Part shown: positions 9,380-18,099 of the stretch, one piece after another
Layout of the letters: each line of letters starts with the position of its first letter
Position numbering within the stretch: the stretch's first letter is position 1
Origin: Vulcanimicrobiota bacterium
GTDB taxonomy: Bacteria > Vulcanimicrobiota > Vulcanimicrobiia > Eremiobacterales > Eremiobacteraceae
Assembly (NCBI GenBank): GCA_963812135.1
Contig: CAWETU010000001.1
Location: 736,001 to 800,000, forward strand
Length of the DNA stretch: 64,000 nt
Reading direction: 5' to 3'
Translations under genes and position numbers: made by a program
The notes under the pieces: generated by a model
What the model was told of the DNA's origin: nothing
What the model saw: only the letters and a program-made list of their open reading frames with translations
Database searches by the model: none

Positions 9380-11656
9380 TCACGGAATCGGTGCCGTGAT
9401 CTGCGCGGTGAATTGGAAACCGCGCGCGTATTGCGTCGTGTTGAACCCGTTGTTGAGTTTGATCAGGTACTGGTTGTTCGTGATATTCGTGGCCTGCAGT
9501 TGATAGCCGAAGCGACCCGGCGCTGCGAGACGGCCGACCGACGCATTGAGCTCCCAGTGCGCGGGCAACCGGCCAGGTCCGTTTTCGAACTGGACCGGGA
9601 AGCCGCTGCCGTAAATCGTCTGGAGACTCGCGTACATCGACCGGTCGGGTGAGAAGCGCCACGTGTATCCGGTGTTGAGCGTGTTGGTTTGATCATGATC
9701 CTCTGGCGCATATCCGTTCGCGCCTTGCAGCTGATCCGGCGAGAACAAGAACGTGCCGCCCGAGATGCCGGATGCGACTGATTGCGACAATCCGTACGAG
9801 ACGAAGTACGTATTGCCGTTGTCCTGCGTGCCCGTCACGCTCAGCTCGATTCCCTGAGCCCGGCCGGCGGTAGAGTTGAAGATCGTGAAGATCGGCGTCG
9901 AGCCGATCTGCGTCGTGTCGAGCACGTTGGCGACCGCACGCGCCCAGTAGTTCACGTACCACTTCGACCGCGGGTCGATTTGATGGGAAAAGCCGAACTC
10001 GTAGATCGAGTCGGTCTCGGGCTTGAGATCGTATACCGGCAAGCCTGAACCCCCGCTGACCACTACCGCGGAACGTCGCGTGTCTTCGAGCGCGGGCGCG
10101 GCATAAAGCCGCCCGTAGTACGCGTGGACGACGTCTTTAGGGTTGAGCGTCTGATAGTCGAGCTCGATGCGCGGGCTCACCTGATTGCCATCGGTGAAAC
10201 CGGTCGAGCGGTCGTAGCGCAGGCCGACATTGGCGGTGAAGGCCGATGACAAGATGCGCTTATCCTCGGCATAGATGCCGAAGTTCGTGCCGTTCTGCGA
10301 TACGTTGTCGTCGAAGCGCTGCAACGTCATGCTCGAGTCGATGAATTGGATGTTGAAGAGGCTCGTGAAGTTCTCGGTATAGGCCGTGAAGCCCATCTTG
10401 ACGTTGTCGCGCGGGTCGGTGCGGAACCACGTCGTCGTCAGGCCGTAATACGTCCCAACGCGGTCTTGGAACGTCGACGTCGCCGCGGTGCCGGCGAGAT
10501 CGTTGGGCGGATCGGGGAAGTACCTTACTTGGCCGCGGTTGTACCACGGCGCGATCTCAAGATAGCCTTGGCCGTCGCCGCTGAGCCGGTTGAAGATGAG
10601 GTTCGCGTATTGGCCGTTCTCATACTGATTGTCGTCAGTTCCGGGCGGCACGAAGCTCGGGCTGGCCGGGTTCGTGTCGATCGGGATCTGGAACGTGGCG
10701 AACAGGTTCGAGAAATGCAGCGCCCATGAGTCGCGCTTGTCAGGGTCGTACGTCAGCCGCAAGAATTCGTTCGATTGGCTCGCGGCGTCGTGTACCGGGT
10801 TGATCGTCGGCGTGTCCAGCCCGCGATCGGAACGCGTGAGGCCGAGCGAGACATAGCCCTTGAACGCATCGCCGCCAAAGGATTCGCTCAGCTGCCCCTG
10901 GGCGGACGCATAGTTCCCGCCGGTCAACACGATGTCGCCGCCGTTTCCGGACGGGCGCCTGGTGATGATGTTCACGACGCCGCCCTGGCGGCTGCCGCCG
11001 AACTCGGCTGGGAACGAGCCCGTGTAGACCTCGAGCGAACCGATGTCGCGGGGATCGAGGACCTCGGCGAACGACGATGAGGTCGTCTGCGGAACGGGCA
11101 CGCCGTCGATCTGATAGGCCACGCCGTGAAAACCGCGCACGACAGGCTCATCGTACGAGAAGGGCACGACGCCTGGCACCGTCGCCGTGACGTTGGCGAG
11201 TTTGAAATTGCTCGGCAGCGTCCGCACGAACGACGGCGTGAGGACGGCGACGCTTACCGGATGTCCAGCCTTGGCGACGGTGACGACACTCCCGAGCGTT
11301 TTCTTCGTGAGATGGAAATCGAGCACCGTGGAGCTGCCGGTGCTTACGGTCACCACGCCGCTTTGCGTGCCCAGAGCAGGCGCGCTTGCCGTGACGGTGT
11401 ACGTGTCGAACACGACGCGAGCGAACACGTAGCGTCCGTCGCTGCGCGTGACGGTATGGTCGGTCGTGCCTTCGCCGCTCTTGATGATCACCGTCGCATT
11501 CGCGACAGGCTTATCGTTGTCGTCGAAGACCGTGCCTTGGATCGCTCCATACGTGCTGGCGGCAGCGGGAGTTCCCACACACAGCAGCGCCGGGATGATG
11601 AGAAGAGAGAGCGCGACAAGCGCGCGCGCACGCGAATAAACAGAAAGAATACGCAA
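9380..11656 (-). CDS. TonB-dependent receptor with N-terminal carboxypeptidase-regulatory-like domain
   Basis: Signal peptide; plug motifs YQIDGVPV and FPAEFGG..GGVVNIITR; GLRYD; NITNNQY. TTG 11656 follows GGAGG (ORF track starts at 11671). Confidence 0.88.
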   Translation of the reverse strand: MRILSVYSRARALVALSLLIIPALLCVGTPAAASTYGAIQGTVFDDNDKPVANATVIIKSGEGTTDHTVTRSDGRYVFARVVFDTYTVTASAPALGTQSGVVTVSTGSSTVLDFHLTKKTLGSVVTVAKAGHPVSVAVLTPSFVRTLPSNFKLANVTATVPGVVPFSYDEPVVRGFHGVAYQIDGVPVPQTTSSSFAEVLDPRDIGSLEVYTGSFPAEFGGSRQGGVVNIITRRPSGNGGDIVLTGGNYASAQGQLSESFGGDAFKGYVSLGLTRSDRGLDTPTINPVHDAASQSNEFLRLTYDPDKRDSWALHFSNLFATFQIPIDTNPASPSFVPPGTDDNQYENGQYANLIFNRLSGDGQGYLEIAPWYNRGQVRYFPDPPNDLAGTAATSTFQDRVGTYYGLTTTWFRTDPRDNVKMGFTAYTENFTSLFNIQFIDSSMTLQRFDDNVSQNGTNFGIYAEDKRILSSAFTANVGLRYDRSTGFTDGNQVSPRIELDYQTLNPKDVVHAYYGRLYAAPALEDTRRSAVVVSGGSGLPVYDLKPETDSIYEFGFSHQIDPRSKWYVNYWARAVANVLDTTQIGSTPIFTIFNSTAGRAQGIELSVTGTQDNGNTYFVSYGLSQSVASGISGGTFLFSPDQLQGANGYAPEDHDQTNTLNTGYTWRFSPDRSMYASLQTIYGSGFPVQFENGPGRLPAHWELNASVGRLAAPGRFGYQLQATNITNNQYLIKLNNGFNTTQYARGFQFTAQITAPIP

Positions 11657-11713
11657 GGAAATGGCCTCCACAAGGGTGTGGCGGCCAAAGGGCGGGATGC
11701 CGGTTTTGGCCGC

Positions 11714-12386
11714 CTATGCTACAAGGGCAGCGAACACCGGAGGAGGACGGCTGGCGATGTGGCGCGCCAGTAGGGGCGGAGCGGGCGACGCTGCGGCAAG
11801 CGCGAGCGTGCGCAACTGCGGCGCGCAGTGCGGGCGGACCGGTTGCGACAGCCGGTCGATCGCGACCAGCACGAAGCGCGCGATGGCGGCGACGCTTTCA
11901 CACGCCGCACGCGCGAAGGCGCGCAGCGCGAGCGCGAGCGTCGCGCCGATGATGATGTGGACGAACGGGGCGCTGAAGTGGCCGGGTCCGAAAATCGCGC
12001 CCGAGCCCAAAACCGCCGTACGAAGAAAGCGCTTGTTCAGACAGCTCTCCGACGACGAGCGACATGAGCTGTAAACCGACGACCGTCGCGATCAGACGGC
12101 TGGGCGAAATCTCCCGCACTGCATCGAGCGCCGGCAACAGCCACTCGGCATCCTGGAACTTGTCGCGGGCGCTTTCGATCACGCCACGCGCGATGAGATA
12201 ACCGGCGATGAGCAGCAGGCCTAGTGCAAGGTAGGCAAAGGGCGACTGCAGCGAGTGGGTGTAATGCGCGGGGACGCCGCCGAAGAGATGCGCGTTTTCG
12301 ATGTTCAACTGCGTAGCATGGCCGAGCAGGGAGGCGCTCAACGCAACCGCCCCGACGAGCAACCAGCACACGTCCCTTCGAGCCAT
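11714..12386 (-). CDS. Multi-pass membrane leader protein ending in RPPP, apparent +1 frameshift at ~12000-12002
   Basis: ORFs 11898..12386 and 11714..12010 join into ~223 aa if one G of ctcGGGcgcg is removed; His-containing loops; ends HIASRPPPVFAALVA; same architecture as 16589..17227. Confidence 0.65.
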
Positions 12387-12477
12387 CTTGATGAATACGG
12401 CCCGTTCAACCGCTGGACCTTTGCCGCAGCGCGGAAACGGGTTCAGGTGATTCTCAGATTGCCACGTCCAAGCGCGC

Positions 12478-13116
12478 CTACGCGCCCGCTTTATGCGCGG
12501 CCGCCAGCAACTGTGATTCCGGCATCTCGCCGCTGCCGGCGAACGTGATCGTCCCCTTGGCGTTCACGATGTAGATCGTCGGAAAGCCGTTGAGCCCCCA
12601 CGCTTGCGCGACCTTGAGATCGGCATCGAACGCCGACGGCCACGTGACGTTGAAGTACTTGTCGAACGAGTCGACGTCCGTCTGATTCTCCGGGATCGGA
12701 TTGCCCTGCGTCGAGCCCGCGGCGTACGGCGATCCCGTCACGGAAAGCATGCCGAAGCGCGACTCCGGCAGCTTGGCGCGCAGCGATCGCAAGACTCCGG
12801 TCATGCGCTGGCAATGCGGGCACCACGTCGCGAACAGTTCGAGCATGTACGGCTTGCCGGCAAACGTCGCGTTGGTGATCGGACCGAGCATCGTCTGCAC
12901 GGAGAAGGGCGGCGCCTGCTGGCCGGCTTTGTGCGGGGGCGGCACCGACGGGATCGCGTTGGGCGCGACGGCTGCGCTCGGCAGTTTGTGCATCTGGGTC
13001 CATGCGTAGACGACGATCGCCACCACGACGAGGACGCCGACGATCAGCGATACAATGGTGCCGGGCGCCGGTCCAGATCGCGCGCCGGAAGGTCGTGACG
13101 GTTGTCTCGCGCTCAA
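12478..13116 (-). CDS. TlpA/ResA-family thiol-disulfide oxidoreductase, membrane anchored
   Basis: N-terminal TM; FATWCPHC; GFPT cis-Pro motif. Confidence 0.88.
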   Translation of the reverse strand: MSARQPSRPSGARSGPAPGTIVSLIVGVLVVVAIVVYAWTQMHKLPSAAVAPNAIPSVPPPHKAGQQAPPFSVQTMLGPITNATFAGKPYMLELFATWCPHCQRMTGVLRSLRAKLPESRFGMLSVTGSPYAAGSTQGNPIPENQTDVDSFDKYFNVTWPSAFDADLKVAQAWGLNGFPTIYIVNAKGTITFAGSGEMPESQLLAAAHKAGA

Positions 13117-13536
13117 TTCTTACCTCTTGCCGCTCGCATCATCGTCGGCTTGGTGTTCCTCGCCGCCGGTGTTTTGAAAGTGGGTCACGCGCCGGATCTC
13201 GGTTCCACCATCGTCGCGTTCCGGCTCGACTTGCCGCCCGCGTTCGTCGGTTTCGCGGCCATCGCTTTGCCGCTGTTTGAAATCGTGCTAGGCGTCTACC
13301 TGCTGCTCGGCTGGCAGCTGCGCATCGTCTCGATCGCGGCTTTCATCGTCTTGTTGATCTTCATCGCCGCGCTTGCCTCGGTCGTGATGCGCGGCATCCC
13401 GACCCCGTGCGGCTGCTTCGGGCCGGCCGAAACGGATCCGGTCACATGGTGGACGATCGCGCGCGATGGCGCCGCCATCATCCCGGCGGCTTATCTGGTG
13501 TGGTGGTCATGGCGCCGTGCGCCCGCGACGCCGTGA
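13102..13536 (+). CDS. MauE/DoxX-family membrane protein
   Basis: RIIVGLVFLAAGVLK, LPLFEIVLG, PCGCFG, TIARD; four TM segments. Confidence 0.85.
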   Translation: MSRAQFLPLAARIIVGLVFLAAGVLKVGHAPDLGSTIVAFRLDLPPAFVGFAAIALPLFEIVLGVYLLLGWQLRIVSIAAFIVLLIFIAALASVVMRGIPTPCGCFGPAETDPVTWWTIARDGAAIIPAAYLVWWSWRRAPATP

Positions 13537-13566
13537 CCATCCCAATGAGAACGATTGAGCTTAGCG

Positions 13567-14025
13567 CTATTTGACCATGTTCATGACGTCTGGGCCGATG
13601 CCGTGCACTTCGACGACCGTCTCGCCTTTGCACATCGCATAGTGATGCAATCCGGCGGGCAGCTCGACGAATGCGCCAGCAGGTAGCGTCACCATCTTCG
13701 CTGGATCCATCTTGTCGCCGATGCCGGCCATGAACGTGCCGCTCAGCACGGTGACCTGCTCAGATTGCGGATGCGAGTGCGGCGGGAACTTGAAGCCATC
13801 CTCGCATTTGTAGCGCGCGGCGTACTGGCCACCCGATTTAGTCGGATCGCCGAAGAGCACTGCGTACGAAACACCGGTCATCCCCTTGACGGGCTGCCAG
13901 TTCACGGCGCCCGGTTGGACGATGATGGGCGCCATAGGATTGGGCATGGCGATGGAGCTCGACGCGAGTCCGACGGCCGCCACCGCGAACACGACCGCAA
14001 ACGCGAGAACCTTACCCTTGTGCAT
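13567..14025 (-). CDS. Exported cupin-domain protein
   Basis: Signal peptide; PPHSHPQSEQVTVLSG and LPAGLHH cupin motifs; Met-rich. Confidence 0.85.
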   Translation of the reverse strand: MHKGKVLAFAVVFAVAAVGLASSSIAMPNPMAPIIVQPGAVNWQPVKGMTGVSYAVLFGDPTKSGGQYAARYKCEDGFKFPPHSHPQSEQVTVLSGTFMAGIGDKMDPAKMVTLPAGAFVELPAGLHHYAMCKGETVVEVHGIGPDVMNMVK

Positions 14026-14113
14026 GAGACCTCCTCACAAGCGCGGGTTAGATGTTCGGGCGGCATCTTGCACGTCGCTCGCAAGGCTACCCATTCGCGC
14101 CGGGACATCAAGT

Positions 14114-16502
14114 TCACTGGCCCGTGCCTAGCTTGATGCCAACATAGAAACGCACGGCCCGGCGCGTAATGGTTGCCCTGCGCGTTGAAGTACGTGATCC
14201 AGTACTGATGGTTGAGAAGGTTGTTGACGCGCACCCACGCCTGCGCGTTGGGCCCGATCGAGAAGCCTTTCTCCGCCGAGAAGATCGTGTGCGGGGTGTA
14301 CTTGCAAAAGCCCGGGGTGTCCGGCGGACAGGCCGCCGACGAAAGTCCGCTGCCGTACTCCTCGTCCATCGAGAACCAACCGCCGCGCGTGTCGTTGAAC
14401 ACGACGCCCGACGTCGCGCCATAACGCTGCTCGTGGTCTGCCGGCGTCCAATCGGTCGGTGACCCGAAGCACGGCGCGAGCAATTGCGTCTCGCAACCCT
14501 TGTTGACCGAATACGTGTGGTTGAAGCTCACGTAGAACCGGCCGTTATGGACGAGATTCTGCTGATAGTACGCGGTCTGCGTCGCGATGCGCCCGAGCGT
14601 ATAGTTGATGTCCTGGTGCAGCAGCGTGACGCCGACCTGCGTGTCGTCGATGAGATCCGTCGCGTTTTTCTGCATGATGCGCAGTCCTAGATCGCCGGGC
14701 CCGAGCGGCAGATGCCCGCCGATCTCGTAATCCGAATCGCGCTGCGGCTTGAGATCGAATTGCGCGATCGTCGGCTGCAGCGGCAGATTGAGCAAGAATG
14801 CGGCTCCCGGCGAGACGTTCTCGAATGAGAACGGCGTGAAGAACCGACCGTAGTACACGTACGCGCTTGCCCGTGGCGAGAAATACCGCGTGAACTTCAC
14901 GCGCGGGCTGAACTGCGTGAATCCCTGGTCGAACTGCGTCGAGAAGACCTGGAACGCGGTCCATCGCACGCCGTAGTCCAGCTCGTAGGCCGAGCCCATC
15001 AGCCAGCTGTCTTGGATGTATGCGACCTCGATGTGGCCGACGTTGGGCGAGTTATCGATCACCGGAAACGAGGCGAGCGGCGTCGATGGTGCGAGCAACG
15101 GCGCCAAATAGTTGCCCGGTTGCAGTGTGATGTCGTAGTACTTGGGCACGTTGGACATGTCGTACGACGCCCCCCAACGGATCGCGTGGACGCGGCTGCT
15201 CAACGCGTAGTCGAAGTTCAACAGGTAGTCGTTCGACGTGCGGTGATCGGCTAACGTGTTGGCGCACGTCACGTTGCTATAGTTCGGGATGGTGAGCGCG
15301 TTAAAGCAATCCGTCGGCATCCCGCCGTTGGCGGCGTTGAGCGCGAAGCCGTAGATCCAATCGTTGAGCGGATCGCCGAAGTCGCGGATCTGCGAGCGCC
15401 GATAGCCGCCGCCGAACGACATCGCGCCGTGGTCGCCGATCGCCTGCCGGAACTGGAGCGCGGCGAACGTATCGTCTTGGGTCTCGTTATCGTCCGAGCT
15501 CGCCGGCTGTCCGTCGTCGGTGGCCACCGGGATCTGGAACGTGCGATACGAGTGCGACAGCGTGAGATTCACGAAATTGCTGCCGCCGTTCCCATAAGGC
15601 AGCGTGTAGCGCACGAACTGATTGGCGTCACTCGCCTGGTTGTGCAACGATACGGCTTGGGGAGGATCCAGACCGCGCCCCGTGCTGCCGTTTTGGACTG
15701 CAAGCACGACCGAGCCATTGCCCACGCGATCGTGATAACCGAGCGTGCCGTCGAACGTGGAGAACGAACCCCCGTCAGCCTCGAACGTCGCACCCGGTCG
15801 CTCAACGTGGATGCCGGTTCGCGTGCTGATGTTGAGCACGGTGGCGAAGCGCTCGCCGTATTGCGCGGGATACGCGCCTTGGATCACGTCGACGAAGGCC
15901 GCATCGCCCGGGTTGAACTCGGAGCCGACGACACGATTGAGCGCTTGCGGCAGCGCGAGACCGTCAACGATATAGTTGATGTCGCCGTGATCGCCGTTGA
16001 TGTGCACGACGCCGTTGGCGCCGCGCGCTGCGCCTGGAAGCTGGATGAGCATTTCCGGAAAGCTGCCGCTAGCCGGCGTGCGCTCGAGGACAGTCGAGTT
16101 GAGGACCAGATCTGTGCCCGATCCGCGGATCGGCGCGCTGCGCACAGCGGACGCGGTGACGCTGCCGATCGTCTTGACGCTGATCTGGAGCGTGACGTCG
16201 GCGCCGCTCGCGGGCAGATCTACGGCGAGCGTGCCGCTGCCGCCGCTCGACGTGGCGATCAACGTGTACGAGCCAGGCGAGAGCGAGCCGAAACGGAAAC
16301 GACCTTCGGACGTCGTGCGAGCGGTCTGGACCACGTTGTTGCCTGTGGCCGTGACCGTCGCGTTCGCGACCGGCTTGCCGCTGCTCAAAACGGTGCCCGT
16401 CAGATACGCATTTGCCGCCATGCTCGGCAGCGGCGCCACGAGCGCGAGCACGATGGCGACAAACGATAGCGCCCGCACTGCGCGGGAAATAACCATGAAC
16501 AT
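14114..16502 (-). CDS. TonB-dependent receptor, apparent +1 frameshift at ~14148-14150
   Basis: Signal peptide; YIVDGL, YPAQYGER, NNLLNHQY. Removing one T of gcgTTTctat gives the beta-strand C-terminus GRAFYVGIKLGTGQ* at 14114 and removes the overlap with the cupin gene. Confidence 0.88.
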
Positions 16503-16508
16503 TTGAAT

Positions 16509-16606
16509 TCCCTCTCGACAGATTAGATGTAACGGTCGAGTTTAATCGACCGAACGAGTGTAGCGGTCGAATTTATCGACCGGCACGCTCAAGCTATCGA
16601 GAGGGA
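16509..16606 (-). promoter_or_regulatory. Predicted SD-sequestering stem between RPPP leader and TonB receptor
   Basis: mRNA arm UCCCUCUCGAUAG (16606-16594) pairs 13/13 (one G-U) with CUGUCGAGAGGGA (16521-16509), which contains the SD. Confidence 0.7.
16529..16582. repeat. Two tandem GTAG-type REP-like palindromes
   Basis: GTAACGGTCGA-gtttaa-TCGACCG and GTAGCGGTCGA-attta-TCGACCG; third copy at 50568. Confidence 0.65.
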
Positions 16607-17227
16607 CGGAGGCGGGCGGTTGTAGAGCTGGCTGAACCAGATGAAATGCGGCAGGCCGAGCGGCGAGCGATCGCGCGATGCGACCAGCGCTGCGCCACGC
16701 GGCGTTGGCGTGACGAAGAAGGCGGCGATGGCGGCGGCGATCGAGGGAAGTCTGCGTCCGATCGCCCACGACGCGAGCCCCATGAAGATGACGGTCAGCG
16801 CCGCGCCGATAATGCCTGCGGCGATGTCGTGTCCGCAGAAGGGGCAACCTTCGCCGATCTGCGTCAGCAGCCCCAACGAAAGCTGCAGCCCCGCGGTGAG
16901 CGCGAAGAACGGACCGCGGCCGCGAAACGGCAGCGTCTCAAGACCGAGGTGCAGCTCACGTTTGAAATCTCTGCCGCCCGCGGATCTGCGCCACAGCGCG
17001 AGTGTCTGATGAAGGGCGACGCCGAACGCGAGCAGCCCCCCGATTCCCAGGTAGAGATGCTTTGGCGAGAGCGCGACGCTGTCTGCGTCGCTGCCCATCG
17101 CGAAAAACTCAGAAGCCAGGTGCGCGACGATGCTGCCGAGCACGACCAGTGCCAAATAGATCGGCACGAGTTGGTGTGGCGTGGAAGCCCGAGGTCGCAT
17201 ACTCAATATATCGTCAGCCGGCAACAT
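16589..17227 (-). CDS. Multi-pass membrane leader protein with CXXC-x-H and C-terminal RPPP (CruR/DUF2946-like logic)
   Basis: ~4 hydrophobic segments, EGCPFCGHD, ends LYNRPPPSLSIA; start may be ATG 17200. Confidence 0.7.
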   Translation of the reverse strand: MLPADDILSMRPRASTPHQLVPIYLALVVLGSIVAHLASEFFAMGSDADSVALSPKHLYLGIGGLLAFGVALHQTLALWRRSAGGRDFKRELHLGLETLPFRGRGPFFALTAGLQLSLGLLTQIGEGCPFCGHDIAAGIIGAALTVIFMGLASWAIGRRLPSIAAAIAAFFVTPTPRGAALVASRDRSPLGLPHFIWFSQLYNRPPPSLSIA

Positions 17228-17240
17228 TTCTTGTGCCTGG

Positions 17241-17265
17241 CTTATTGAGAATCAATCGCAATAAG
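17241..17265. promoter_or_regulatory. Second Fur/Zur-family operator
   Basis: CTTATTGAGAATCAATCGCAATAAG matches the 4830 box at 20/25 positions; directly upstream of the minus-strand leader/TBDR unit. Confidence 0.8.
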
Positions 17266-17295
17266 TCCTGCCGGCTTCTCGCTCCGAAGGTACGA

Positions 17296-18099
17296 CTACT
17301 TGGCGGGCCTCGGCGTTTCAGCTGCGGCGCCGAGCAGGCCCGGTTCCAGCCACATCCCGCCGTCTGCGACGAGGACCGCGCCGTTGACGTACGACGCGTC
17401 GTCGGAGAGCAAAAACGCCGCGGCAAGCGCCACTTCTTCGGGCGTCTCGAGGCGGCCGAGAGGCACCCGGCTTGCGATGCGGTTGCGGATCTCTTCCGTC
17501 GGAAAAAGTTTTTCGGCTGAACCCGGCGTGTTGACGACTCCAGGGCACAGCGCGTTCGTGCGGATGCCGTAACGACCCCACTCGACCGCCAGCGTTTGCG
17601 TCAGCGACACAACGCCTGCTTTTGCGGCGGCGGAATGGATCGTGCCCGGTCCGCCGGTCCACGCATAACTAGCGACGATGTTGAGGATGGAACCGCCGCG
17701 CCCCGCCGCGATCATCGCTTTGCCGGCCGCGCGCGCGCAATAAAACGTGCCGTTGAGCACGATGTTGATCACCGCATTCCAGCCATTGGGCGAGAGCTCT
17801 TCCGCGCGCACGATGAAGTTGCCGGCCGCGTTGTTGACAAGCGCGTCGATGCGGCCGTATTTGGCGACGACGCCGTCGACGAGCACTTGCACCTGATCCG
17901 GCACGCGCACGTCGGTCTGCGCCGACTCGGCGTCACCGCCTGCGGCGCGGATGCCGTCCACGGTTTCGGCGAGCGGTTCCGGGCGCCGGCCCGCGACGAC
18001 GATGCGTCCGCCAAGTCGCGCCAAGTGTTCTGCCATCGCGCGGCCCAAACCGGTCCCGCCGCCGGTGATGACAATCGTCTTGTCCTTGAAGTCAGGCAT
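17296..18099 (-). CDS. SDR oxidoreductase, 2,4-dienoyl-CoA reductase-like
   Basis: TGGGTGLG, NNAAGNF, HSAAAKAGV. Confidence 0.85.
   Translation of the reverse strand: MPDFKDKTIVITGGGTGLGRAMAEHLARLGGRIVVAGRRPEPLAETVDGIRAAGGDAESAQTDVRVPDQVQVLVDGVVAKYGRIDALVNNAAGNFIVRAEELSPNGWNAVINIVLNGTFYCARAAGKAMIAAGRGGSILNIVASYAWTGGPGTIHSAAAKAGVVSLTQTLAVEWGRYGIRTNALCPGVVNTPGSAEKLFPTEEIRNRIASRVPLGRLETPEEVALAAAFLLSDDASYVNGAVLVADGGMWLEPGLLGAAAETPRPAK

Follow-up and report, generated by a model that had tools for sequence, protein, structure and literature searches.

RESULTS

Gene layout of the lead2-TBDR2 locus

We analyzed a gene, here called lead2, and the TonB-dependent receptor gene that follows it, TBDR2, in a Vulcanimicrobiota bacterium (contig CAWETU010000001.1, positions 736,001 to 800,000). 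The window is this whole stretch of 64,000 nucleotides (nt), and the features below lie on its minus strand unless stated otherwise. Lead2 is the His-type gene whose product ends in RPPP, and lead1 is its CXXC-type paralog. The features are as follows, with TM standing for transmembrane helix, SD for Shine-Dalgarno sequence and MFE for the minimum free energy structure.

12386-11714, minus: lead2 gene overall, 223 codons, broken by one extra G at 12002-12000
12003..12386, minus: N-terminal part of lead2 (frame A, ATG at 12386), with TM1-TM3 and the beginning of the TM3-TM4 loop
11714..11999, minus: C-terminal part of lead2 (frame B), with the GPGH loop, TM4, the cytoplasmic tail and TAG at 11716-11714
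12000..12002, minus: frame-breaking G-run, one G more than the orthologs in a DNA alignment with 4 same-genus orthologs
11738..11779, minus: conserved putative arrest segment PPLLARHIASRPPP, with invariant or near-invariant residues; its RPPP aligns on the RAPP of distant homologs
11734..11746, minus: predicted anti-SD, CCUCCUCC (Pro codons) and then GGUGU; GGAGG is its partner with p ~0.95, and CCUCC:GGAGG occurs in 6/6 genus sequences with one mismatch
11680..11714, minus: intergenic 10-bp hairpin GGCGGCCAAA-N15-UUUGGCCGCC, present in the MFE, stem nucleotide-invariant in 6/6 same-genus sequences
11665..11679, minus: ACACC (11679-11675) and the SD GGAGG (11669-11665) of TBDR2, SD pairing probability 0.996
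9380..11656, minus: TBDR2, TTG start at 11656; Pfam CarboxypepD_reg 5e-16, Plug 9.2e-10, TonB_dep_Rec_b-barrel 2.4e-15
16589..17227, minus: lead1, paralogous CXXC-type gene ending NRPPPSLSIA, preceding the other TonB receptor (16502 to about 14114)

A sequence-only reading of this DNA had proposed that the proline codons at the end of lead2 hide the SD of the receptor, and every motif that it listed (CCUCC, GGTGT, ACACC, GGAGG, the TTG start, the RPPP codons and the hairpin) was found at its place. The RPPP codons are CGT CCT CCT CCG (11749-11738), 7 residues before the stop, and the pairing elements are CCTCCTCC at 11746-11739 and GGTGT at 11738-11734. The protein ends in SRPPPVFAALVA, and frame B runs up to the TAG as ...LLARHIASRPPPVFAALVA. 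A spacer of 57 nt separates lead2 from TBDR2; the hairpin arms occupy 11714-11705 and 11689-11680, and the first G of the 5' arm is the final base of the stop codon. At the position aligned with the TBDR2 start, orthologs have ATG or TTG, with ATG in two same-genus orthologs. A scan of the spacer for sigma-70 promoters and intrinsic terminators found none, and Rfam at E <= 1 over 11300-17600 returned no riboswitch and a single sub-threshold small RNA match.

A conserved four-helix membrane protein

The lead2 product is a conserved four-helix membrane protein of ~223 amino acids (aa) rather than a short leader. The earlier term "leader" understates this conserved polytopic protein. Both sides of the frame break match the family profile: frame A reads MARRDVCW...SSYGGFGLG, homologous to profile residues 2-131 (E 2.2e-51), and then nonsense to the stop at 11900-11898, and frame B (...AIFGPGHFSAPFVHI...HIASRPPPVFAALVA) matches profile positions 124-224 (E 4.4e-34). 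The AlphaFold2 (AF2) model of an intact ortholog, with a predicted local distance difference test score of 79.9 and a predicted template modeling score of 0.70, contains long hydrophobic helices at residues 2-31, 47-74, 95-120 and 139-163, followed by a lower-confidence C-terminal tail of ~60 residues. These four predicted helices would supply the localization signal or TM segment by which members of the RAPP-like arrest class are recognized.

In the 22 aligned lead2-type sequences (alignment A1; 28-83% identity to the first sequence), H23, A40, H44, Q106, G133, L206, A211 and R213-P216 are invariant, and W8, E30, Y42, Q47, P85, E114, E117, Q118, S121, H136, R159, A207 and the C-terminal Ala are conserved at >= 90%. 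The His residues in GHA, YTH and GPGH are those that the family keeps, as H23, H44 and H136, without or almost without exception. If the basic N-terminus is inside, as the positive-inside rule suggests, the periplasmic ends of TM1-TM4 would carry all of the conserved His, Glu and Gln. From the loop Gly between TM3 and TM4 to the motif Arg, the median distance is 80 residues (interquartile range 79-80) in 65 RPPP-type proteins and 77 (77-78) in 47 RAPP-type proteins; from TM4 to the motif, the tail is conserved in length and free in sequence. Rows from three unpublished genomes (G010, G013 and G016) are included in the ortholog tables (motif, pairing, codon and CxxC counts). They contribute 2 of the 22 rows of A1, and so also enter the AF2 model, the profile searches, the profile comparison and the spacing, and they are omitted from the lead1 alignment A6.

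No Pfam family was found for lead2, either with the window pieces at 0.01 or with an ortholog, PF11162 included, at E up to 10, and the databases name its relatives a hypothetical protein of Candidatus Eremiobacteraeota. Foldseek of the AF2 model against the PDB gave no match at E <= 0.001. The best Z of a VIA-align wide search with the model was 7.4 (Lit transacylase and ABC-transporter TM domains), which is noise level for helical bundles, and these candidates were discarded. The C-terminal Ala (window 11717-11719), found in >= 90% of lead2-type proteins and likewise in many lead1 and RAPP-type tails, could stem from the context of the stop codon or from a C-terminal signal for degradation, or be a coincidence in a proteome rich in Ala.

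The RPPP motif and its variants

The motif [NS]RPPP lies 1-11 residues from the C-terminus in 19/20 lead2 rows and 20/20 lead1 rows from relatives, the lead2 row that lacks it being a weak 92-codon match. An RPPP near an open reading frame (ORF) end is not rare by itself, since 40 of the 26,050 stop-to-stop frames of this genome carry it in their last 16 residues; its conservation in 19/20 rows is what counts. Among 151 representatives (150 from the profile search below and one close relative), RPPP was found in 66, RAPP in 60, RGPP in 12 and RSPP in 3, so that 141/151 have an R[PAGS]PP core and the 10 with none are mostly fragments. A comparison of the RPPP-type and RAPP/RGPP-type profiles (99.7% probability, E 6.6e-27) aligned RPPP on RAPP. 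The segment before the core reads LLA-x-x-IA-[NS] in the RPPP type and H-x-R-x-IGG in the RAPP-type subgroup. Lead2 therefore has an R-[A/G/P]-P-P core within ~10 residues of its C-terminus and a family-specific conserved segment just N-terminal to it, and its motif probably belongs to the RAPP-like arrest class.

RAPP and RGPP are described as demonstrated arrest cores near the C-terminus of small secreted or membrane proteins, including four-TM proteins and the CruR protein (PMC12992588; PMC9426467). For RPPP itself, PMC4176338 reports that it is the strongest XPPP staller in Escherichia coli without elongation factor P (EF-P), PMC8129111 classes it as a "strong pauser" in a wild-type reporter, and PMC10987492 lists it among the RAPP-like motifs searched in E. 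coli and Bacillus subtilis. In the main text of PMC12992588 the terms "RPPP" and "Eremiobacter" are absent, and the survey presented there extracted RAPP and RGPP only. A full-text literature search (TonB-dependent, arrest peptide, upstream ORF [uORF]) returned no paper on such a family. The genome of the window encodes EF-P (efp, 255.5 bits, above the cut-off), and lead2 has three Pro in a strong context, as in EF-P-dependent pauses. The share of CCT among Pro codons is 20/51 in lead2 motifs and 14/60 in lead1 motifs, against 9.2% genome-wide.

Predicted pairing between the lead2 end and the receptor Shine-Dalgarno sequence

In the window, a 121-nt fold has an MFE of -45.8 kcal/mol (z -3.5; 1/200 shuffles equally stable) that includes the 10-bp hairpin and GGUGU/ACACC, with GGAGG paired to GCC-G-UCC. 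The 161-nt ensemble pairs the SD with CCUCC at 11746-11742 (p about 0.95), and the six-sequence genus consensus pairs CCUCC at 11743-11739 with GGAGG in 6/6, with one C.A mismatch. The proposed pairing of CCUCC-GGUGU with ACACC...GGAGG therefore agrees with the genus consensus register, and its GGUGU/ACACC helix and hairpin with the MFE, and it needs amending in that the SD has several fold registers. The hairpin stem is invariant within the genus and its flanks vary. The SD pairing probability is 0.996; among 337 genes of this genome that have a GGAG[GA] SD, the median is 0.645 and 1.8% score as high. In silico, the SD of the downstream gene would thus be hidden in structure, with the caveat that masking the ribosome footprint leaves 0.83. 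The sequence-only reading depended on an in-frame RPPP in orthologs and on a paired SD, and both were found, the former in 5/5 same-genus orthologs and the latter by prediction.

Across genera, 32/35 orthologs have every base of the SD core paired with bases between the Arg codon and the stop. Downstream starts were assigned automatically; four were corrected by hand (L036, L038, L039, L008), two records with uncertain starts were dropped (L041, L042), and one had no downstream ORF in range (L010). Counted from the third motif codon (first base; the predicted P site), the nucleotides that pair with the SD occupy positions -6 to +17, 34/35 records staying at or below +16, and those of lead1 fall at +9 to +12 in 11/18 records, even with a 27-nt tail. 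The footprint of a stalled ribosome reaches about 13-16 nt 3' of the P site. The pairing nucleotides are therefore inside the region expected under a ribosome stalled at the motif.

The anti-SD also changes along with the SD, CUCCAAGUC occurring with GACUUGGAG, UUCCAGUCA with UGACUGGAG and GCCUCCGU with ACGGAGGC. With one record per genus, cognate tail/SD duplexes of lead2 come to -18.9 kcal/mol vs -15.0 for non-cognate ones (8/40,320 exact permutations as good), and those of lead1 -20.5 vs -13.1 kcal/mol (2/5,040). Without the unpublished genomes, the counts are 8/5,040 for lead2 and 4/5,040 for lead1. Class-level RAPP/RGPP homologs have a like design, in which CUCCUUCAGA faces CUGAAGGAG, CCUCCUG faces CAGGAGG and UGCUCCUG faces CAGGAGCA. 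The complementarity of the motif and tail codons of lead2 to the SD of its own receptor, claimed earlier from the window, is borne out by both the same-genus and the cross-genus pairing.

Distribution and downstream genes

Among 41 relatives, lead2 occurs in 22 genomes and lead1 in 21, almost all of them in the window's own family. The profile search of 1.84 billion cluster representatives returned 309 at E <= 0.001. Of 151 genomes sampled from the phylum, 22 contained a match (family f1 7/8, f2 13/71, f3 1/2), and none was found in the eighteen other families of that sample, which is no proof of absence there. A RAPP-type profile built from 10 closer rows gave 28 loci in species-representative genomes. 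Twenty are titled Eremiobacteraeota, Vulcanimicrobiota, Elarobacter or Velthaea (the last two we take to be genera of the phylum), 3 "uncultured bacterium" and 5 other names; one of the latter, from Thermoleophilaceae (L100), was rejected as an off-frame chance match. Judging by record titles, the family is largely confined to Eremiobacterota. The clusters nearest to its own in the ESM Atlas are unannotated proteins of ~208-241 aa, commonest in Candidatus Dormibacterota (498 members) and Actinomycetota (54 members), and may be four-TM arrest proteins of this kind outside the phylum.

A CarboxypepD_reg TonB receptor follows lead2 in most relatives and in 11/16 class-level homologs, and the claim that lead2 stands before its own TonB receptor thus holds in most relatives. 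Some class-level members with RAPP, RGPP or RPPP tails precede non-receptors, namely DUF1007 (L052), LytR_cpsA_psr (L066, L070), a cytochrome-c domain protein (L071) and unassigned genes; therefore, the module is not tied to receptors alone. At L066 the Arg is replaced (GCAPP), yet the tail CUGUCGA still matches UCGACAGGA ahead of the next gene. In two relatives (L017:1836-2789, L022:1836-2816), the gene after lead2 encodes no receptor but a secreted protein of ~320 aa that lacks a Pfam family and has AAHVVCGDRVFP as its mature N-terminus.

The frame break in lead2

The window reads CTCGGGCGCG where 4/4 aligned same-genus orthologs have CTC-GGCGCG, that is, one extra G at 12002-12000. The break had been placed correctly at ~12001 and its direction had not, since one surplus G must be skipped where a +1 correction would add a base. 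Lead2 is intact in 5/5 same-genus orthologs found, with open frames of 223-228 codons and RPPP in frame; they come from 5/6 genomes, the sixth of which is 72% complete. All of the close database relatives (30/30) have 199-260 residues. Public contigs do not cover 11981-12017 (four runs; best public data set with 0.51 of the words), and the only nearby difference that they contain is G>A at 11750, a synonymous change in a Ser codon. The chances that the extra G is an assembly error or real decay are near even. A programmed frameshift is unlikely on this comparison because the orthologs are plainly in frame.

A similar defect affects the receptor on the lead1 side, where a +1 insertion in a T-run (TTT at 14150-14148, GCGTTTCTATG) lies 14 codons ahead of the natural stop and makes the listed 866-aa ORF read on into the cupin gene. 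Judged against the ortholog in the related genome G006, whose product ends ...GRTFVMGVRIGAGQ, the corrected end would be ...GRAFYVGIKLGTGQ, which resembles it. The rpoB and rpoC genes, 7.6 kb together, are unbroken, which indicates that indel errors are not rampant. A genome-wide codon-usage change-point heuristic for frameshifts gave 484 candidates, mostly false positives, and was not used.

Relation to lead1 and indications of the ligand

Pairwise BLASTP between lead1 and the lead2 pieces found nothing besides RPPP. The comparison of the lead2-type profile (A1) with that of 17 lead1 orthologs (A6) gave 92% probability and E 6.5e-7 over 151 columns, aligning NRPPP on [NS]RPPP and the lead1 EGCPFCGH on the lead2 EQ...(12 extra residues)...GH. 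Lead2 is thus a distant paralog of lead1, in keeping with the earlier view of it as a second, divergent member of one RPPP-ending gene type. CxxC occurs in 15/20 lead1 orthologs, invariably placed 75-78 residues ahead of the motif Arg, and in 0/17 lead2 orthologs, so that the Cys vs His contrast noticed in the window is a trait of the family.

In other genera of the family (L011, L012, L014-L020), lead1 and lead2 are adjacent and divergently transcribed, each facing its own receptor, and the window's genus has them in the same orientation with about 5 kb between them. Genome G011 has two lead2-type genes 3 kb apart and lead1 on the same contig (C11:404566-411365), and a further RPPP-type copy at C13:20422-21066, which indicates repeated duplication of the module.

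Three genes lie between the two receptor operons (12478-14025): a signal-peptide ChrR-like Cupin_7 cupin, a plus-strand MauE/DoxX membrane protein and a membrane-anchored TlpA-like redoxin, the last of which (13116-12478, minus) precedes lead2. Such a thiol-redox gene set often goes along with copper handling. In G006 and G005, a 218-aa gene that overlaps the receptor stop lies between the lead1 receptor and the cupin (L101:3717-4588, L102:3837-4493); it is SCO1/SenC in G006 (Pfam 7.6e-31) and, by ORF layout, in G005. The window lacks ~650 nt at this place (about 13924-14163), a possible decay of the lead1 locus in this genome. The CXXC of lead1 together with the SCO1/SenC gene of the relatives suggests a copper link for the lead1 operon. 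For lead2, no indicator of the ligand was found beyond its His/Glu residues. That the two genes sense different metals is plausible, with the conserved His/Glu or Cys and the SCO1/SenC gene of the relatives as its sole basis.

DISCUSSION

Lead2 and TBDR2 probably form a stall-controlled translational switch of the CruR/SecM/ApdA kind with a membrane-embedded His/Glu sensor, and at the level of the family a regulatory role is well supported by the comparative data. In the free mRNA, the Pro codons and GGUGU would pair with ACACC...GGAGG and the hairpin would clamp both, closing the ribosome binding site of TBDR2. The last lead2 codons, ...LLARHIA-S-R-P-P-P plus 7 residues, would act as a RAPP-like arrest module. 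A ribosome stalling at R-P-P|P, its P site occupied by the second Pro codon and its A site by the third, would hold the anti-SD within its footprint; with the anti-SD covered, the SD would be free and the TonB receptor translated, so that stall duration would set receptor output. We infer that a periplasm-facing cluster (H23, E30, H44, E114, E117 and H136) could bind a metal or another ligand once TM1-TM4 are inserted, and that ligand-driven folding could pull the nascent chain and end the arrest, so that receptor synthesis would stop at high ligand levels. A mechanical link of this sort agrees with the fixed 80-residue spacing from loop to motif. In the present assembly the extra G would divert ribosomes before RPPP, and the switch would work here only if that G is an assembly error.

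The closest studied system is CruR of Bordetella pertussis (Bp2923, DUF2946/PF11162, before BfrG), which, as described in PMC9426467 and PMC12992588, likewise combines a localization signal, a C-terminal R-x-P-P and a downstream TonB-dependent receptor with a fixed spacing from a putative metal-binding motif to the arrest motif (CXXC-RAPP), and which arrests in vitro at the third and fourth motif codons. It differs in being ~145 aa with a signal peptide, whereas lead2 has 223 aa and four TM helices, in having RAPP instead of RPPP, and in its invariant CXXC ~45 residues before the motif, where lead2 has none but His/Glu and lead1 has its CXXC 76 residues away. Moreover, CruR has a 162-bp spacer with Rho-dependent termination, in contrast to the 57-nt structured spacer and predicted SD sequestration of lead2, and is found mostly in Proteobacteria rather than Eremiobacterota. 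PF11162 gave no match to the lead2 ortholog or lead1 (E up to 10), none at these loci and none over the cut-off genome-wide.

The four-TM RAPP/RGPP proteins of Streptomyces lividans (SLIV_18480, SLIV_27375, SLIV_33595/33605), likened to lead2 by description and not by sequence comparison, have four predicted TM, a C-terminal RAPP-like motif, conserved His/Cys proposed for metal and a co-directional metal or redox gene downstream, and arrest has been demonstrated for them (PMC12992588). As presented there, their downstream genes are YcnI-like, thioredoxin or sigma-factor genes and not TonB receptors, their motif is RAPP or RGPP, and the uORFs that precede TonB receptors almost all have signal peptides. 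SecM, ApdA, ApdP, MifM and the RQH family resemble the proposed lead2 switch in an arrest near the C-terminus of a membrane-targeted uORF, a RAPP-like core and a conserved segment upstream of it. In these systems, according to PMC10987492, the SD of the next gene lies hidden in a stem-loop until the stalled ribosome opens it; they are short, otherwise unconserved Sec/YidC monitors with sec/yidC targets, whereas lead2 is conserved and polytopic and would have a receptor as its target. Finally, EF-P-dependent pauses (CadC PPP and RPPP reporters) share the Arg-Pro-Pro-Pro context, and codon choice, including CCU, is reported to tune the pause (PMC4176338; PMC8129111); they differ in that they set the copy number of their own protein and unmask no downstream SD. 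Compared with CruR and the 2025 RAPP/RGPP survey, the apparently new elements are the RPPP core, a polytopic sensor with no Pfam family, the SD-based output and the largely Eremiobacterota distribution.

Several observations weigh against a stall-controlled switch. The whole protein is conserved and may have a job of its own, for example, as a transporter or receptor partner; in this assembly its frame is broken, and a genuine extra G could mean a nonfunctional copy. Arrest at the lead2 RPPP is presumed from motif identity, the RPPP polyproline stalls were demonstrated without EF-P (PMC4176338) whereas this genome has it, and the EF-P-refractory cores given for the 2025 study in PMC12992588 are RAPP and RGPP, not RPPP. 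The CCU enrichment could come from selection for slow decoding, an effect for which PMC8129111 provides the precedent. As regards the RNA, same-genus pairing is conserved without covariation (term +0.25, six sequences), and CCUCC:GGAGG complementarity is generic for any CCU-containing Pro run. The window tail pairs no better with its own SD, non-cognate ones being as good in 10/14 cases and in 5/7 of the one-per-genus set. Besides, 8/92 other segments of its own ORF pair equally well with the SD region, and the corresponding counts in the five same-genus orthologs are 76/192, 92/192, 0/190, 28/195 and 26/194. Masking the stalled-ribosome footprint, in a model with neither trailing ribosomes nor folding kinetics, still leaves an SD pairing of 0.83, down from 0.99, since CUCC at 11781-11778 can take over. 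Because the relatives are not independent of one another, the support is overstated by the binomial and all-record permutation figures.

For this genome in particular, there is a real if somewhat less than even chance that lead2 is a dead relic, in which a genuine extra G makes ribosomes exit the frame at 12002-12000 and stop at 11900-11898, RPPP is never read and the SD of TBDR2 stays closed; this would apply to this copy and not to the family. The second +1 homopolymer insertion (TT to TTT, 14150-14148), which breaks the neighboring receptor, the absence of the SCO1/SenC gene found after that receptor in G006 (and in G005, judged by ORF layout), and the intact rpoB/rpoC genes, which make rampant indel errors improbable, all favor decay. 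Nevertheless, both breaks are single-base homopolymer expansions, typical of long-read consensus error, the two lead2 reading frames are otherwise intact and conserved, and the 5/5 same-genus orthologs found are intact. A different objection concerns the output, which might lie mainly in transcription: a ribosome parked at RPPP might, as in CruR, keep a C-rich rut site at the lead2 3' end out of reach of Rho and so let transcripts extend into the receptor gene, with SD pairing secondary. We consider this unlikely, although it is compatible with an SD switch. CruR (DUF2946, RAPP) governs a TonB transporter in this manner (PMC9426467), and the spacer scan found no intrinsic terminator; the C-rich last ~100 nt of lead2 and spacer (C 47-49% vs G 26-28% around 11830-11700) and the rho gene of this genome are compatible with it. 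On the other hand, the spacer is just 57 nt and mostly folded in a conserved hairpin, while the 162-bp spacer of CruR needs unstructured RNA, and a positionally fixed, co-varying anti-SD would be superfluous for Rho.

A classic way of coupling two genes is to bury the SD of the second in the end of the first, and the TBDR2 SD could accordingly be hidden so that the receptor simply needs lead2 translation, RPPP being a protein motif for docking or turnover and not an arrest site. Conservation of the whole four-TM protein would suit this explanation, and the C-terminal Ala in >= 90% could hint at a C-terminal signal. We regard it as quite improbable, given that the motif alternates solely among RPPP, RAPP, RGPP and RSPP, which we regard as known arrest cores, that the anti-SD lies beside the motif and not at the stop codon, even with 27-nt tails, and that the tail from TM4 to the motif is constant in length but not in sequence. 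It is harder still to see here a GC-rich frame that merely happens to end in RPPP near a G-rich SD. The 40 of 26,050 frames with such an ending and the ready folding of high-GC RNA, seen in the control median of 0.645, make each part of such a coincidence conceivable, but the conservation of protein, motif, spacing, synteny and pairing over ~35 orthologs and ~300 representatives contradicts it, leaving chance a hardly credible explanation.

Under the stall-controlled switch that we favor, a broader proposal can be put forward tentatively, as one that stands below even odds: polytopic inner-membrane sensors, largely confined to Eremiobacterota, would detect a periplasmic ligand (metal) via a His/Glu or Cys site built from TM1-TM4, turn its occupancy during translation, through a tail of constant length, into release of an RPPP/RAPP/RGPP arrest, and so gate the cognate TonB receptor; the two in the window, a Cys type and a His type, would answer to two ligands, and RPPP would be RAPP-like and possibly EF-P-resistant. 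Stall-based control of metal-uptake receptors has so far comprised one studied case, CruR, and the 2025 RAPP/RGPP survey. The natural homolog series that swaps RPPP, RAPP, RGPP and RSPP at one position speaks for Arg-polyproline being part of the RAPP-like arrest class, and sensitivity to EF-P can be tested on it directly. The sensor would be a conserved four-helix membrane protein whose fixed loop-to-stall distance suits tests of force-based, ligand-driven release, and the output would run via a co-varying anti-SD inside the footprint of the stalled ribosome. For Eremiobacterota, an uncultured soil phylum, this would provide a first functional handle on these unannotated genes and on the regulation of TonB receptors.

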